Positions 16,179 to 47,104 of a DNA stretch of 64,000 bases are shown piece after piece. The stretch comes from Octopus vulgaris (taxonomy: Eukaryota): contig OX597830.1 in the NCBI GenBank assembly GCA_951406725.2, forward strand, positions 19,840,001-19,904,000. The letters run 5' to 3'. The translations under genes were made by a program, and so were the position numbers. Every line of letters begins with the position of its first letter. Positions within the stretch are counted from its first letter, which is position 1. The notes under the pieces were generated by a model, which saw only the letters and a list, made by a program, of their open reading frames with translations, made no database searches and was not told the DNA's origin.

Positions 16179-16180
16179 AA

Positions 16181-16598
16181 GGCGGCGAGCTGGCAGAAAC
16201 GTTAGCACGCCGGACGAAATGCGTAGCCGTATTTCGTCTGCCGTTACGTTCTGAGTTCAAATTCCGCCGAGGTCGACTTTGCTTTTCATCCTTTCGAGCT
16301 CGATTAAATAAGTACCAGTTACGCACTGGGGTCGATGTAATCGACTTAATCCCTTTGTTCGTCTTTGTTTGTCCTCTCTGTGTTTAGCCCCTTGTGGGTA
16401 GTAAAGAAATAGATATTTCGTCTGCCGCTGCGTTCTGAGTTCAAATTCCGCCGAGGTCGACTTTGCCTTTCATCCTTTCGAGGTCGATTCAATAAGTACT
16501 AGTAACGCACTGGGTTCCATGTAATCGACTTAATCCCTTTGTTCGTCTTTGTTTGTCCCCTCTATGTTTAGCTCCTTGTGGGCAATAAAGAAATAAAT
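16181..16598 (+). mobile_element. SINE family B (tRNA-like head plus Meta/MESC-like domain), tandem dimer
   Basis: GGCGGCGAGCTGGCAGAAACGTTAGC head, GAGTTCAAATTCC B-box and GTCGACTTTGCCTTTCATCCTTTCGRGGTCGAT..AAGTACCAG domain. The second unit starts at about 16414. Confidence 0.88.
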
Positions 16599-16639
16599 AC
16601 AGGAAGTTCATAGCCAGGCTGAAGAAATGATTGTTGTAT

Positions 16640-20343: not shown

Positions 20344-20428
<85 letters not shown>

Positions 20429-20490
20429 TAATAATAATAATAAAAATAATATTAATAATAATAATAATAATAATAATAGTAATAATAATA

Positions 20491-20575
<85 letters not shown>

Positions 20576-20577
<2 letters not shown>

Positions 20578-21131
20578 GCCCTGATGCAGTACCAGGCAGT
20601 GGCTCTCATGGCTTCTGATCTTAACTGATTGGAAGTGTTATCATGTACATTGTTTTGTCTTGGTATAAAAGATGGGCTACAGCAAATATTCTGCTCAATA
20701 CCACACATTTGCTTGTCAGTTGTTTGACCTTAACCAGTTGAGCATGTCCCTTAGTGGCTGACGATATGTGCATCTCTGATCACGAGCAGAAGTAGTGGAG
20801 GAGAATCATAGCCATGTGTTGAGAAGGATTCTTTGGGGTTTGAATAATTCACCTCTGGAAACATGGGTGTTTCGTTCAACGTCCTTAAACAACCCTTATT
20901 CAGGGACCTTTTGAGAGGGATGGGTTACTCGATCTGAAGAAAATTCTAACTGGGCTCCACCTGCAAGGTCATGTACTGTTTATCTTGATATGAGATCACC
21001 ATGTCGCGCACATATGGTTGTGATGCATGTGCCTAGTGTACCTTTATCAGACGGGTAGTCATGATGGGTATACTGGGCTTCGTATATTTTACCCCAGTGT
21101 CACTTTGATGGCATGCTCTGCTCGCTCACAC
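20576..21131 (+). mobile_element. ~556-bp non-coding element in (TAA)n, copy 1
   Basis: Runs ATGCCCTGATGCAGTACCAGG..GCTCGCTCACAC and is flanked on both sides by (TAA)n. Near-identical to 22972-23527. Confidence 0.9.
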
Positions 21132-21221
21132 AATAATAATAATAATAATAAAAATAATATTAATAATAATAATAATAATAGTAATAATAATAATAGTAAT
21201 AATAATAATAATAATAATAAT

Positions 21222-21535
21222 AGCTACCTAACTCAGATACCAGGAAACCCAAAAATGGCAGTTCAAAAGATAGTGCTCATGGGAACTGCTCATATCCTAC
21301 GCAAAATACTCTCTATGTAATCTCAAGGTTTAAAACAAACATAATTTTCGGTTTAAAAAAAAAAAAAAAACTTTTTTTTTTTTTTAGACATTCATTAGTA
21401 CAACATCCCCACCCCCCAAATATATGGCACACTAGGCATAACAACAACATGAACTTCCAACCCTGTTGTCTCTTGAGGTCTCTGGGTGAGACTTGGAGCC
21501 AACTTGTACAAATATAAAGCAAAAGTCAAACATAG
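21222..21535 (+). mobile_element. R4/Dong-type non-LTR element, 5'-truncated 3' end (lineage 1)
   Basis: SYLTQIPGNPKMAVQKIVLMGTAHILRKILSM* plus 3' UTR, flanked by (TAA)n. Confidence 0.85.
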
Positions 21536-21551
21536 AATAATAATAATAATC

Positions 21552-21592
<41 letters not shown>

Positions 21593-21602
<10 letters not shown>

Positions 21603-21810
21603 TATTCAGACAAATACATAACAAAAACACCAGGACTTACAAACACATATAACATACAGAAAATTGCACTACTAGGCACTGCACACATCCTACGCAGAAC
21701 ACTTTCCATACAATAACCATCAGAGCATCACAACAAATCACAGCACATACCCAAGGCACACAGAGCTGCGCTCGGTAGTGAAGTGAAAGCACGCTATAAA
21801 AATAAAACTA

Positions 21811-21994: not shown

Positions 21995-22198
21995 CTTTCT
22001 ACAAAAGACACAAGGCCTGACATTTGGGGGGAGGTGGATAATCGATTACATCGATCCCAATGCTCCAAGGTACTTATCGACCCTAAAAGGATGAAAGGAA
22101 AAGCCGAGCTCAGCAGGATTTGAACTCAGAACGTGAAAATGGACGTAATACCGCCAAGCAGTGTGCCCGGCGTGTTAACAATTCTGCCAGCTCGCCAC
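21995..22198 (-). mobile_element. SINE family B (alternative tail)
   Basis: Reverse complement of GGTGGCGAGCTGGCAGAAT..GTTCTGAGTTCAAAT..CTTTCATCCTTT..AGGCCTTGTG. Confidence 0.8.
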
Positions 22199-22219
22199 CA
22201 TAATAATAATAATAACAAC

Positions 22220-22971: not shown

Positions 22972-22973
<2 letters not shown>

Positions 22974-23527
22974 GCCCTGATGCAGTACCAGGCAGTGGCT
23001 CTCATGGCTTCTGATCTTAACTGATTGGAAGTGTTATCATGTACATTGTTTTGTCTTGGTATAAAAGATGGGCTACAGCAAATATTCTGCTCAATACCAC
23101 ACATTTGCTTGTCAGTTGTTTGACCTTAACCATTTGGGCATGTCCCTTAGTGGCTGACGATATGTGCATCTCTGATCACGAGCAGAAGTAGTGGGGGAGC
23201 ATCATAGCCATGTGTTGAGAGGGATTCTTTGGGGTTTGAATAATTCACCTCTGGAAACATGGGTGGTTTTTTCAACACCCTTAAACAACCCTTATTCAGG
23301 GACCTTTTGAGCGGGATGGGCTACTCAACCTGAAGAAAATTCTAACTGGGCCCCACCTGCAAGGTCATGTGCTGTTTATCTTGATATGAGATCACCATGT
23401 CGCGCACATATGGTTGTGATGCATGTGCCTGGTGTACCTTTATCAGACGGGTAGTCATGATGGGTATACTGGGCTTCGTATATTTTACCCCAGTGTCACT
23501 TTGATGGCATGCACTGCTCGCTCACAC
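22972..23527 (+). mobile_element. ~556-bp non-coding element in (TAA)n, copy 2
   Basis: Same 5' and 3' ends as 20576-21131, flanked by (TAA)n. Confidence 0.9.
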
Positions 23528-35409: not shown

Positions 35410-36630
35410 GGCGACGATGAGGATGATGGTGATGATGATGATGAGGAGGAGGAGGAGGAGGAAGAGAAGAGGAAGAGGTGGAGGTGGGAATGGTGGTGAT
35501 GGTGACGATGATGATGACGATGATGATGACGATAATGAAGATGATGATAGTGACGGCGACGATGGTGAAGATGGGGAGGTCCATGATGATGATGATGATA
35601 ATGATGATGATTGTGACGATGATGAAGGTGTTTGCGACGATAATGACGATGGTGATGATAATGATGATGATAATGATGATGATGATGATGATGATGATAA
35701 CGATGATGATGATGATAACCATGATGATGATGATGATGATGATGATGATTGTGACGATGATGATGGGGTTGGTGGTGGCGGCGGCGATGATGATGATGAT
35801 GAGGAGGAGGAGGATGGTGGTAGTGGTGGTGGTGGTAATGGTGGTGATGGTGACGATAATGATGATGATGATAATGAAGATAATGATGGTGATGGCGACG
35901 ATGGTGATGATGGTGAGGATCATGATGATGATGATGATGATGATGACGATGATGATTGGGTTGGTGGTGGCGGTGGCGAGGATTATAACAATGGTGATGA
36001 TAGTGGTGTTGTTGTTGTTGTTGTTGGTGGTGGTGGTAGTGTTGGTACTGCTGCTGCTGATGACGATGGCGATGTTGACAGTGCGGCGAGCTGGCAGAAA
36101 CGTTAGCACGCCGGGCGAAATGCTTAGCGGTATTTCGTCTGCGTTACGTTGTGAGTTCAAATTCCGCCGAGGTCGACTTTGCCTTTCATCCTTTCGGGGT
36201 CGATAAATTAAGTACCAGTTACGCACTGGGGTCGATGTAATCGACTTAATACCTATGTCTGTCCTTGTTTGTCCCCTCTGTGTTTAGCCCCTTGTGGGTA
36301 ATAAAAAGAAAAAATAGGTATTAATGACATTGCTGACAACGACGACGACGACAATGATGATGGTGGTGGTGGCGGTGGTGGTGGTGGTGGTGGTAGTAAT
36401 GACAACAACGACGATGATGATGTCGATGATAATGACGAGGACGACGTTCAAGATTTTGCTGCGCCTGCTTTTATTGCAGTTTCTTATCTTAGCTATTGTT
36501 CTTGATGATGATGATGATGACGACGATGACGACGACGAAGGTGATGATAATGATGATGATGATGACGACGACAACGGTGATGATTATGATGACAATGATG
36601 ATAATGATGTTGATGATGACGATGATGATG

Positions 36631-37689: not shown

Positions 37690-38755
37690 CGCTTCTCGGC
37701 TAGGGATGCGGAGTTCTGCGAAATGCCGATAACAGCCAGAGGTATACGGGACGCAATGAAGGCCTGCGAAGAGAGAAGTCTCCGGACGGGATGATCTGCC
37801 CTTCGAGCTTTATTTTCATATGCCAGACTTGTTTGGTGATTCCTTGGCAGGTGTCTACCTCAACTGGCAGCAAAACGGTGGTGCTGTTGAGGAAGGACCC
37901 GGACAAGAGGAACAAAATTAATAATTTTAGGCCTATAACTATACTGAATGCAGATTATAAGATTTTGGCCATGGTGTTAGCCAAGAGGTTGGCGCTTGTC
38001 GTCGATAAGTTGGTTGGTAACGCGCACACATGTATTTTACCCAAAACAGAACTATCCACGACAACCTCAACCTCACGCGTTACATCATAGAGAGGGTAGA
38101 TAAGGAACTTGGCATGAGAGTGGCCCTGACCAATTTGGATCAGTCGAAAGCTTTTGATTGGGTCGACCACCAATACATGGAGGCTATTCTCGCAGCAGCG
38201 GGTTTCGGTCCCATTTTCAGAGGCTGGATCGCAGCAAAGTAGAACGTCATCTGTTCGGTGGTCAAAGTAAACGCCCATCTATCGGAATCAATTAGCATCG
38301 CTCCTTTGGTTCGTCATGGATGCCCACTCTTGCCTCTTGAGAACGTACTTATTTCTTTATTACCCACAAGGGACTAAACATAGAGGGGACAAACAAGGAC
38401 AGACATAGGTATTAAGTCGATTACATCGACCCCAATGCGTAACTGGTACTTAATTTATCGACCCCGAAAGGATGAAAGGCAAAGTCGACCTCGGCGGAAT
38501 TTGAACTCACAACGTAACGCAGACGAAATACCGCTAAGCATTTCGCCCGGCGTGCTAACGTTTCTGCCAGCTCACCGCCTCTTGAGAACGTACTGGCTCA
38601 CGTGTCATTGCTGCGGAAGCTGGATGTTTCGAGAGGCATCCTGCATGATCAATGATGCGGAAGGTTCGTGTCGGCTTACACGGACGACGTCACCGTAATA
38701 GTGTCGGGCATCTCGGAAATCGAGGTGGTCGGCACTGCTGTAAGGGAGTACGAAT
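37690..38755 (+). mobile_element. Tx1/L1-clade reverse transcriptase relic
   Basis: SPGRDDLPFELY, NFRPITILNADYKILAMVLAKRL, RTIHDN, LDQSKAFDWVDH, VRHGCPLLP and SAYTDDVTV across frameshifts. Confidence 0.92.
38350..38579 (-). mobile_element. Young SINE family B inserted into the Tx1 RT with a perfect TSD
   Basis: TCTTGAGAACGTACT duplicated at 38335-38349 and 38580-38594. Confidence 0.93.
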
Positions 38756-38769
38756 AAATAAATAAATTC

Positions 38770-39283
38770 ATGAATGAATGTTGTTTTCACAGCGATAATG
38801 CTCTTCTCAGTACATGAGTCGTTCCAGTTAACACGATTTTTTGCACTTCCTGTAGGGATGGTAAACCTGGTATCATTTTCAAATAGGTTTCAGTACCTTT
38901 TTTTATCATTCCTAGAGATCCTACAATCACTGGTACTGTAGTCGCCTTGAGATGCCACATTTTTTCAATTTTTATTGGCAAGTCTTTACATTTACTGATC
39001 TGGTCAAATTCTTTCGCCGCTATATTGCGATCGCAAGGAATACTCATGTCAATTAATAAACATATATTTTTTGTCTGATCTGTTATAATAATATACGGTT
39101 TATTAGCTTTTATAGTTTTGTCGGTATGTACGGGGAAGTCCCAGAGAATCGACACATTTTCTCCCTCAGTCACAGCTTCAGGATGGTGTTTATACCATTT
39201 GTCAGCAGTTTCGATTTTATAATGCCGACATATTGTCCAGTGTAAATACTGGCCGACTCCGTCATGTCTTGCTTTATATTCTA

Positions 39284-39285
<2 letters not shown>
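38770..39285 (-). mobile_element. R4/Dong-type non-LTR element, restriction-like endonuclease region (lineage 3)
   Basis: YKARHDGVGQYLHW..WYKHHP..ILWDFPVHTDKTIKANKPYII..LIDMSIP..K..PVIVGSLG..QKIVLTGTTHVLRRAL*. The 5' truncation abuts (TAA)n on the element strand. Confidence 0.92.
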
Positions 39286-39314
<29 letters not shown>

Positions 39315-39706
39315 GAGTGAGAGAGCAGTTCATGCCATCAAAGTGACACTGGGGTAAAATATACGAAGCCCAATATAACCATCATGACTACCCGTCTGAT
39401 AACGGTACAACAGACACTTGCATCACAACCACATGTGCGCGACATGGTGATTTCATATCAAGATAAACTGTGCATGGCCATTTTCTTCAGGTTAAGTAGC
39501 CCATCCCGCTCAAAAGGTCCCTGGATAAGGCCTGTTTAAGGATGTTGATCGAAACACCTAGGTTTCCAGAGGTGAATTATTCAAATCCCAAAGAATTTCT
39601 CTGATCATATGCCTATGATGCTCCCCGACTACTTCTGCTCGTGATTAGAGGATGCACATATCGTTAGCCACCAAGGGACATGTTCAACTGGTTATAAGGT
39701 CAAGCA
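39315..39706 (-). mobile_element. ~556-bp (TAA)n element, 5'-truncated copy
   Basis: Reverse complement of the 3' two-thirds of 20576-21131, with the same 3' end followed by (TAA)n. Confidence 0.88.
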
Positions 39707-39835
39707 TCTGCCGAGGTCGACTTTGCCTTTCATCCTTTCGGAGTCGATAAAATAAGTACCAGTTGAACACTGGGGTCGATGTAATCGACTTAATCCCCTC
39801 CCAAAATGTGAGGCTTTGTGCTTCCAGTAGAAAGA

Positions 39836-39894
<59 letters not shown>

Positions 39895-44329: not shown

Positions 44330-46070
44330 CTTTCAGATTTTGCCACTTTGGGAGAGGGAGCAAAAGACGATTACATCGAGCTCAGTGCTCAACTGGTACT
44401 TGGTTGATCAACCACGAAAGGATGGTAACAAAGTCGATCTCAGTGGAATTTGAACTCAGAACGTAAAGATGAACGAAATGCCGCTAAATATAAATTATTT
44501 CTAACATTTTAATGTATGGTGCATTATAAAACTGACCTAAAATTCTGTCAAATTTTGGTACAATGTCAGCAACCTTTCGGAGAATTGGTTAGTCGATTCT
44601 TGGATCCAGCACTTGACTGATATTTTATTGGGTTGTCTGGAAAGTTCGTGCCGATTTTTAAAGGAAAGGAAAAGGTCAATAAATACTTGCCAATTCATTT
44701 TTAATCAACCAAATATGAACCATTTTGTTGCACAATGAGTCTCCAACTTTCCTTTAACTTGAAAACACCCTCTTCCCAGAATTGAGGTGGTTTCACGGCA
44801 AAGAATTCATCAAGGTATCTTTTTACGTCATCCAAGGAATTGAAATTTTTACCATTAAGACTATTCTGCAGAGACATAAATAAGTGGAAATCCGAATGAG
44901 CAATATCTGGTGAATATGGACAGTGGGGTAACACATCCCAGCCAAGCTGCAACAATTTTTGTCTGGTTCCCAAAGTAGTAAGTGCCGAAAATGAGCTTTC
45001 TTATCTTCCATTTTAAAGGATTACAGAATTAACACAGGTAATAGGAACATAAACCTTCTTTCACGAAAAGATAGCTTAAACTAAATGGAGGTGTAGTCCA
45101 ATCCTATTTTATGGATTCAACCATGTTCTAAAATAAGTCGAAATTAAGCTACTATAAATAGGCACGAACTTTCCGGAGAACCCAATATTTTATCGATAAA
45201 AGGCAAAGAGTTGAGAAATTCCGCTGAACATTTTTTCAGACTTACTACCGATTCTGCTAGCTCGCCGCACTAACAATCTTTTCTGCTATAAAGCACAAGG
45301 CGCGAAATTTTGGTGAAGGTCATCTAGTCGAGTGCATCGACCGTAGTGCTTCACTGGTACTTAATTTATCGACCGCAAAGGGATAAAAGGTGAAGTCGGT
45401 CTTTGTTGTATTTGAACTCAGAACTAAAAGGCAGACGAAAAGCGATTGTGGCAGAAAACTACATTAATAATGATAATAACCCTTTCTACTATAAGCTAAA
45501 GACCTGAAAATTTTGGAGGGGGGGGGTTAGTCGATCATGTCGACCCCAGTGTTTCATTGGTACTTACTTCATCGACCTCGAAAGGATGGAAGGCAAAATC
45601 GACCTCAGCGGAATTTGAACTCATTACAAAAATGACAGAAGAGACCGCTATTTTGTCCGGCGTGCTAACGATTGTACCACAAAACTAGCATTAATAATAA
45701 TAATAGTAATGATGATGTTGGTGATGATGATGATGATGATGATGATGATAATAATTATAATAATAATCCTTTTCTTCTATAGGGGAAGGAGTAAGCTGAT
45801 TACAAAGACCACGGCAGCATTTGAACTCAGAACGTGGAGACAGACGAAAATACCTATTTCTTTACTACCCACAAGGGGCTAAACACAGAGGGGACAAACA
45901 AGGACAGACAAACGGATTAAGTCGATTCCATCGACCCCACTGCGTAACTGGTACTTAATTTATCAACCCCGAAAGGATGAAAGGCAAAGTCGATCTCGGC
46001 GGAATGTGAATTCAAATCAGAGCGACAGGCGCTAAACACTTCGCCTGGCGTGCTAATGACTCTGCCAGCT
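44330..46070 (-). mobile_element. Cluster of at least five SINE family B copies or fragments, all on the minus strand
   Basis: Repeated GAAAGGATGAAAGGCAAAGTCGA..TTTGAACTCAG motifs at about 44410, 45200, 45380, 45580 and 45970. Confidence 0.8.
44628..45185 (-). mobile_element. Internally deleted mariner (DD34D-type) with both TIRs and TA TSD, nested in a SINE B
   Basis: TA|TTGGGTTGTCTGGAAAGTTCGTGCCGATTT..AAATAGGCACGAACTTTCCGGAGAACCCAA|TA. N-terminal MEDKKAHFRHLLL is joined to C-terminal LGWDVLPHCPYSPDIAHSDFHLF. Confidence 0.95.
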
Positions 46071-46138
<68 letters not shown>

Positions 46139-46141
<3 letters not shown>

Positions 46142-46529
46142 GCCCTGATGCATTACCAGGCAGTGGCTCGCGTGGCTTCTGATCCTAACTGATTGGAAGT
46201 GTTGTCATGTACATTGTTTTGTCTTGGTATAAAAGATGGGCTACAGCAAATGTTCTGCTCAATACCACAGATTTGTTTGTCAGCTGTTTGACATTAACTA
46301 GTTGAGCATGTCCCTTAGTGGCTGACGATATGTGCATCTCTGATCACAAGCAGAAGTAGTGGGGGAGCATCATAGCCATGTGTTGATATGAGATCACCAT
46401 GTCGCGCACAAATAGTTGTGATGCATGTGCCTAGTGTATCCTTATCAGACGGGTAGTCATGATGGGTACACTGGGCTTCGCATATTTTACTCCAGTGTCA
46501 CTTTGATGACATGCACTGCTCTCTCACTC
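46139..46529 (+). mobile_element. ~556-bp (TAA)n element, internally deleted copy
   Basis: Same ends as copies 1 and 2. The internal deletion of about 165 bp has TTGA microhomology at the junction. Confidence 0.9.
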
Positions 46530-46625
<96 letters not shown>

Positions 46626-46704
46626 TTAGAATAATTATTTAGAATAAAAATATTACTCATGGAGAGCTAAGCTATGCTAGATCATAGACATAGCATGCCA
46701 AGCT

Positions 46705-47025
46705 GACAACAAGGTATGCGATAAGGAAGAAAGGTAAGTCGAGAGATAGGTTAGTTTGGGAAGTTAAGCAGTTGTGGTCGATGAAAAGGGTAGCAGTAGT
46801 ACCAATAACTGTCGGAGCCCTGGGAACAGTGAATAAAAATCTCGAAATGTACGTGGAACGAATAGGGGCTGCAATAAAGGTGGAGTACTTGCAGAAAACA
46901 GCACTGCTTGGAACCGCTCGTATACTCCGGAAGGTGCTCGAAAAATAAGAGGTGTTACCTTAGTTCACTGGTAGTGAGCAGCTGACACTGTAGTACATCT
47001 CCAGTGTTAGAAGCTGTGCAAAGGC
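46705..47025 (+). mobile_element. R4/Dong-type non-LTR element 3' end (lineage 4)
   Basis: EVKQLWSMKRVAVVPITVGALGTV..LQKTALLGTARILRKVLEK* (stop at 46946-46948), short 3' UTR, then (TAA)n. Confidence 0.88.

Positions 47026-47104
<79 letters not shown>

Follow-up and report, generated by a model that had tools for sequence, protein, structure and literature searches.

A 556-bp non-coding retroposon of octopus TAA microsatellites and its probable mobilisation by Dong/R4 LINEs

Results

The window analysed here, a 64-kb stretch of Octopus vulgaris DNA, holds four copies of a 556-bp non-coding element, each where a sequence-only reading had placed it. By alignment two of these are full length, copy 1 (20576..21131, + strand; 97% identical to the majority sequence of the family) and copy 2 (22972..23527, +; 99%), the latter serving as our reference copy. 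Copy 3 (46140..46529, +) keeps both ends, with HSPs to element bases 2-247 and 410-556, and alignment to the family majority sequence shows that ~162 bp have been deleted inside it (bases ~248-409); copy 4 (39315..39710, − strand) is older (86%), holds element 142-556 only and adjoins another repeat, not TAA, on its 5' side. A (TAA)n target tract lies 5' of copy 1 (20344..20575, +), and a second (21132..21224, +) separates the same copy from a 3' fragment of the Dong/R4 LINE family that we label A (21220..21537, +; 96% identical to a copy with an intact 1314-aa ORF), beyond which lies a 3' fragment of our family B (21591..21810, +; 99% identical to a copy with an intact 1227-aa ORF). Sequence comparison identifies two more such 3' fragments, one from the older family C (46669..47027, +) and one, downstream of copy 4, from family D' (38753..39285, −), both again our labels. 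The earlier observation of same-strand Dong 3' fragments beside three of the four copies is thus confirmed.

The window also contains a very abundant short repeat, which we take to be an octopus tRNA-derived SINE, at 16179-16600, 22022-22199, 36083-36322, 38346-38580, 39707-39851 and 45326-46070; it often borders the TAA tracts of the element, and it is the repeat joined to copy 4 at its 5' side. Fragments of a different LINE reverse transcriptase with a NFRPITILNADYKILA motif, presumably L1/Tx1-like, lie at 37704-38340.

Across the 2.8-Gb assembly that contains the window, an exact 24-mer near the 3' end of the element has 13,160 matches and an exact 5' 24-mer has 5,747, with none for the reversed 24-mers run as controls. 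A search with the reference copy returned 1,759 candidates, and the 40 of these that were scored are near-full-length matches at 98-100%. In a systematic sample of sixty 10-kb stretches we counted 14 HSPs, which reduce to 11 copies or fragments per 600 kb once two deleted copies are merged and one match to a MITE (described below) removed; extrapolated, this is roughly 50,000 copies in the genome (Poisson range, calculated by hand, ~26,000-92,000). Element sequence is likewise present in contigs of 20 sequencing runs carrying six organism codes; none of the listed runs is recorded as RNA, and contigs reveal neither starts nor strand. The median divergence of copies from their subfamily majority sequence is 2-4%, overlapping that of LINE families B and D, and the oldest copies stand 10-21% away; because just 3 of the 62 copies of the main subfamily fall within 1% of its majority sequence, the peak of activity in this subfamily may predate the youngest LINE copies.

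The element had been described as having ‘fixed ends’, which proves right for the 3' end and only partly so for the 5' end. The common 3' end before (TAA)n is confirmed for the window copies. We then took 90 consecutive copies, namely those that come first by position on our contig C1 among the 13,160 matches to the 3' motif. Their 5' starts fall at bases 1-3 in 43 copies, nearly all of them directly after TAA, at base 8 or earlier in 46, and at scattered points from 9 to 464 in the 44 that are 5'-truncated. The more uniform 5' end that we had pictured earlier arose because the best full-length matches had been selected. A truncation hot-spot near the TATAAAAG motif, also suspected earlier, found no support in the 90 copies. 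Anchoring on the 5' 24-mer instead, 29 of the first 30 copies extend to the 3' end. None of the 90 copies continues upstream into shared sequence or a shared ORF, as copies of a plain LINE 3' UTR with random truncation points should, though 44 are truncated. What was taken for a fixed 5' end marks where the full-length RNA begins, an RNA whose copies are frequently cut short, as is usual for elements copied by target-primed reverse transcription (TPRT). In one copy (L065), bases 103-519 are inverted ahead of the forward 3' end, which, read in the light of what is established for TPRT, looks like a twin-priming-type pattern.

That the element sits ‘only in (TAA)n’ is close to the truth. TAA is found on the 3' side of 88 and on the 5' side of 73 of the 90 consecutive copies, against a background for the same criterion of 0.48% (1,144 of 239,640 oriented 15-mers in the 600-kb systematic sample), so chance is excluded, and the flanks, the subject of one of the proposed checks, come out as TAA-enriched in this sample. 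A few copies nevertheless lie in (GAA)n or (CAA)n: one (L270) has (GAA)n on both sides and no TAA tail, and three others (L209, L284 and L283) have GAA or CAA 3' of the element, from which it follows that the flank derives from the target and is not a tail of the RNA. Of 125 matches to the last 11 bases of the element (a set that includes a few unrelated CT repeats), 95 have AATAAT directly 3' of the last templated base, and the same junction is seen in 17 of 17 Dong-A ends and 30 of 32 Dong-B ends.

At 4 of 81 element starts the 5' end is duplicated in tandem. At L341 (C1:30147300-30149600), ~14 tandem repeats of bases 1-68 stand ahead of a single full copy, and nearly all restart at A+1 with no TAA in between, from which we infer that the RNA has a discrete 5' end; at L025, L026 and L028 an 18-base unit is repeated at the 5' end. 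Jumps of the kind seen at L341 could seed satellites. Several sequencing runs also show a joint that leads from element base 138 back to base 1. G is among the letters added at the 5' junction in 3 of 74 element starts versus 22 of 31 LINE starts, and the scarcity of added G in the element hints at an uncapped RNA. Capped Pol II RNA for the LINEs together with uncapped RNA for the element would explain the contrast; G additions inherited in the LINEs would also explain it.

Six-frame translation of the element gave no protein match to Dong D or to a profile of families A, B and D, and we found no TIRs or terminal repeats. Nor was a tRNA or other Pol III-type head recovered (no Rfam match of this type at E≤10; 0 genes in ARAGORN). 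The first reading of an element devoid of ORF, TIR and tRNA A/B-box head is upheld, with the qualification that, judged by the usual box patterns, there is a loose A-box-like motif at +25; a B box is missing, and three T4 runs disfavour Pol III. Like a canonical SINE, the element is non-coding and shows the marks of TPRT, namely a fixed 3' end, 5' truncation and an inversion, but it has neither Pol III head nor B box. It begins near TG and ends near CA, with a TATA-like TATAAAAG at 89-96.

As RNA, the whole element is predicted to fold better than its shuffles (z −3.97). A predicted structured head occupies element 1-102 (22972..23073, +), with z −2.7 on the majority sequence compared with −1.5 and −0.4 on two window copies, and a stem-loop is predicted just 5' of the fixed 3' end (23449..23520, +), for which two window copies score z −2.45 and −2.26 but bases 451-556 of the majority sequence only −1.3. 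The middle is unstructured (z +0.2), its flanks more structured. The whole-element fold also draws the two ends into a panhandle, which we discarded, end-to-end pairing alone being not significant (p 0.32). Rfam at E≤5 and E≤10 held nothing relevant for the element or for the 5' end of Dong D, and a home-made descriptor, run without a positive control, detected no HDV-like ribozyme anchored at the element 5' end. The best candidate for a hammerhead, sought in any order, had a stem II of only 2 bp and was rejected.

Loose contig ends at element positions 106 and 272, recurring in four sequencing runs, led to a second repeat family: a ~490-bp MITE with imperfect ~120-bp TIRs, CAC...GTG ends and mostly TAA or TTA flanks (an example copy is at C2:140007672-140008157, with further loci at L291-L340), for which a search with the left part gave 2,882 candidates. 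The middle of the element (bases 103-272; 23074..23243, +) recurs in the interior of this MITE, whose majority sequence it matches at 164/170 positions. The 30 loci fetched with the left part included no MITE lacking this segment; element matches there lay only within 102-272, and no alternative interior appeared. The CAC...GTG ends fit those of Chapaev3-type transposons as given in the excerpt of PMC4079192, and from the ends alone we call the MITE Chapaev3-like; no transposase was found for it. MITE copies lie 5.5-13.7% from their majority sequence, and the MITE is older than the element. Comparison of this range with the 10-21% of the oldest element copies favours capture by the MITE, while the unstructured middle between more structured flanks favours the opposite direction; we lean modestly towards capture of a retroposon segment by the founder of the MITE.

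Three co-resident LINE families combine many near-identical copies with intact ORFs, as found by protein searches: D (up to 1,258 aa), B (1,227 aa) and A (1,314-1,318 aa), whose proteins are mutually 43-48% identical. In family D an RVT_1 domain is present, and R2 proteins are the only relatives of known structure. The 165-aa LINE C-terminus went unrecognised by Pfam. We apply the Dong/R4 label on the strength of the order of domains, of C-terminal motifs and of the TAA target, Dong being described as targeting TAA (PMC3812793, in part). Full-length A, B and D LINEs have a fixed start after (TAA)n, with tandem 5'-end duplications in 3/5, 2/4 and 2/22 cases respectively. A splice-donor-like GT(A/G)AGTA motif lies ~110-140 bases after that start (L157-L161 for A, L151-L155 for B, L064/L071-L090 for D), and the letters added at the 5' junction are G-rich, which suggests a capped Pol II start for these LINEs. 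No convincing HDV ribozyme was seen in the three LINE 5' ends with the home-made descriptor, again without positive control; a weak Dong-D candidate with a short L3 appeared under loose settings only, was absent under strict ones and was dismissed. Family C shows no open frame above 366 aa among 150 scored matches. The sampled stretches contain no fewer than five additional Dong-like families, older and each with its own 3' UTR (L098, L099, L106, L110 and L065). The part of the O. vulgaris repeat survey available to us gives 5 recently active Dong-R4 families among 51 Dong-R4 consensus sequences in total, alongside recently active RTE and CR1 families and 893 recently active ‘unclassified SINE’ families (PMC13282606).

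We compared the element with three LINE 5' ends and nine Dong 3' UTRs in 15 tests. The best nominal values (p 0.016 and 0.03) are not significant after correction, whereas the control pairs, A versus D at the 5' end and D versus D' at the 3' end, each gave p 0.002; BLAST of the element ends against Dong LINEs found no match. The alignment to Dong 5' and 3' ends that had been called for therefore yields nothing significant, and the lack of obvious 3' identity first remarked on for the LINE tails of the window holds against all nine 3' UTRs, a number to be set beside the 51 Dong-R4 consensus sequences listed. At L033 and L173/L174 the element is joined directly to Dong ORF sequence without TAA, and these junctions could be template switches or, equally, later deletions.

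Discussion

Our findings support the proposed view of the element as a non-autonomous, microsatellite-targeted retroposon, distinct from a plain LINE 3' UTR. The part of that proposal which assigns its movement to R4/Dong machinery is inferred from junctions: the truncation, the twin-priming-type inversion, the 5' duplications and the phase of the 3' junction all match those of Dong A, B and D, and so make trans-mobilisation by Dong likely. We regard mobilisation by some Dong family, whether or not it shares a tail with the element, as quite probable. Adjacency to LINE ends in the same orientation provides no independent link, since an oriented target common to both would produce it.

We propose, with rather less assurance but as the reading we favour, that co-resident Dong LINEs supply in trans the reverse transcriptase and endonuclease that copy the element, with no 3' tail detectably common to both. 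The RNA, probably uncapped, would have a discrete 5' end at A+1; we incline slightly towards an internal promoter in the first ~100 bases as the source of this start, with RNA processing as a less probable, though serious, candidate. A Dong protein would then bind this RNA through its 3' structure, or loosely, nick an (NAA)n tract and prime reverse transcription, with early stops leaving 5' truncations and template jumps leaving 5' duplications. New copies entering TAA tracts beside older copies and LINE ends would build clusters such as those in the window. In its fullest form the proposal is doubtful: that a site-specific, RLE-type Dong/R4 LINE has amplified to tens of thousands of copies a foreign and probably uncapped RNA with which it has no tail in common, this RNA joining, as a mosaic, a structured head to a stretch that was exchanged with a DNA transposon, its 5' end made in a manner unlike that of the host LINE. 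If true, RNA recognition would be relaxed, or would depend on structure alone, in a group that counts as stringent on the example of R2.

Other accounts must be weighed against this one. The most serious, although we consider it unlikely, is a stringent partner: an unsampled or extinct Dong/R4 family with the same 3' tail as the element, and perhaps the same 5' end, in the manner of EhLINE1 (a member of the R4-type clade) and EhSINE1, or of R2 and its SIDEs. All of the junction evidence for Dong applies equally to such a partner, and as the 3' UTRs of different Dong families are mostly unalike, only the exact partner would be expected to match; the nine tails compared stand against 51 O. vulgaris Dong-R4 consensus sequences, and the weak nominal match to family C (p 0.016) points the same way. 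The description, in part of PMC3414825, of R2-type LINEs as requiring their own 3' UTR counts against a Dong that works without a shared tail. Against the stringent partner, none of the 90 copies with the exact 3' 24-mer runs on into LINE sequence, the three intact-ORF families that are the obvious current donors show no match, and family C has no open frame longer than 366 aa among its 150 scored matches. Improbable, in our view, is a LINE of another clade (I/Nimb, RTE or CR1), with an RNA that terminates in UAA repeats and pairs with TAA tracts; it would account for a tail without match to Dong, the I element is described as ending in TAA repeats (PMC3747384, in part) and RTE and CR1 are reported as recently active in O. 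vulgaris (PMC13282606, in part), but the copies in GAA or CAA tracts that have no TAA tail, the TAA usually present on the 5' side too (73/90), and a junction phase and 5' duplications like those of Dong A and B all speak against it.

Two further readings carry very little weight with us. The TG...CA ends, the TATA-like TATAAAAG and the 170 bp common to the MITE might recall a Penelope-dependent retrozyme, a solo LTR/TRIM or a DNA-transposon derivative, a very improbable account that we consider largely refuted: there is no hammerhead with credible stems, no Rfam match, no terminal repeat or TIR and no significant end-to-end pairing (p 0.32), and one-sided 5' truncation with a TAA bias suits neither an LTR nor a cut-and-paste element. 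Slighter still is the chance that we are seeing truncated fragments of a plain LINE 3' UTR, for although about half of the copies are 5'-truncated, the 43 of 90 that start at bases 1-3 do so nearly always after TAA, not one of the 90 extends into shared upstream sequence, and no frame matches the Dong profile.

Trans-mobilisation by a co-resident Dong, the reading that we prefer, has its closest known cases in Entamoeba EhSINE1 and the Drosophila R2 SIDEs (published systems are cited here from excerpts of the papers named). The Entamoeba elements of the pairs EhSINE1/EhLINE1 and R4-N1_ED/R4-1_ED, together with EdSINE1, are like ours 500-600 bp long and non-coding, without an identified small-RNA head; they have only A/B-box-like motifs, their polymerase is unknown, and they have an R4-type LINE as partner (PMC2996970, PMC3747384), with R4-1_ED named as such in a table of PMC3747384. 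A co-resident R4-type LINE able to supply protein is present in the octopus as well, in the shape of the three intact-ORF families, their clade being judged from domains and target. EhSINE1 (PMC2996970) differs in having ~70 bp of its 3' end in common with its LINE, where the element has none among the nine Dong 3' UTRs, and in entering T-rich sites with no fixed target, where the element occupies (TAA)n in tens of thousands of copies. The Drosophila R2 SIDE and the R2/R1 hybrid SIDE resemble the element as non-autonomous and site-specific sequences with the target and junction style of an RLE-type LINE, but they are rare and carry an HDV-like ribozyme and a recognisable LINE 3' UTR (PMC3414825), neither of which our descriptor and tail comparisons found in the element. 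Put in SIDE terms, target site and junctions are those of the autonomous element, whereas the ends are not derived from it; we therefore do not file the element under either EhSINE1-type elements or SIDEs, since shared ends are lacking among the families sampled.

Described Dong elements (Bombyx Dong, DongAg, DongBg and octopus Dong-R4) have in common with the element the TAA target, 5' truncation and a fixed full-length start (PMC3812793, PMC3774820, PMC13282606), and Bombyx Dong is described as self-cleaving at its 5' junction by an HDV-like ribozyme (PMC3774820); they are autonomous, and the element is not. The Chapaev3-type MITE has only the middle (103-272) in common with the element, which lacks TIRs.

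A TAA-targeted, non-autonomous partner of Dong was not described in the literature that we searched by titles and the starts of abstracts, with Dfam and Repbase outside the search, and the element is not described in the available part of the O. vulgaris repeat survey (PMC13282606). An automated consensus of so abundant a repeat is probably already in repeat libraries, and the parasitic strategy itself is not new; the new points are the middle in common with a MITE and the rarity of added G at the 5' junctions.

Few non-autonomous partners of RLE-type LINEs are known (the Entamoeba SINEs and the Drosophila SIDEs), and all of these have ends shared with a LINE. With more than 13,000 young copies of the element and three intact candidate donor proteins, the choice of a foreign RNA by a protein of R2/R4 type becomes directly testable, a question that is also relevant to gene insertion tools based on R2. 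For the octopus genome itself, the element accounts for part of the clustering of repeats in TAA microsatellites.
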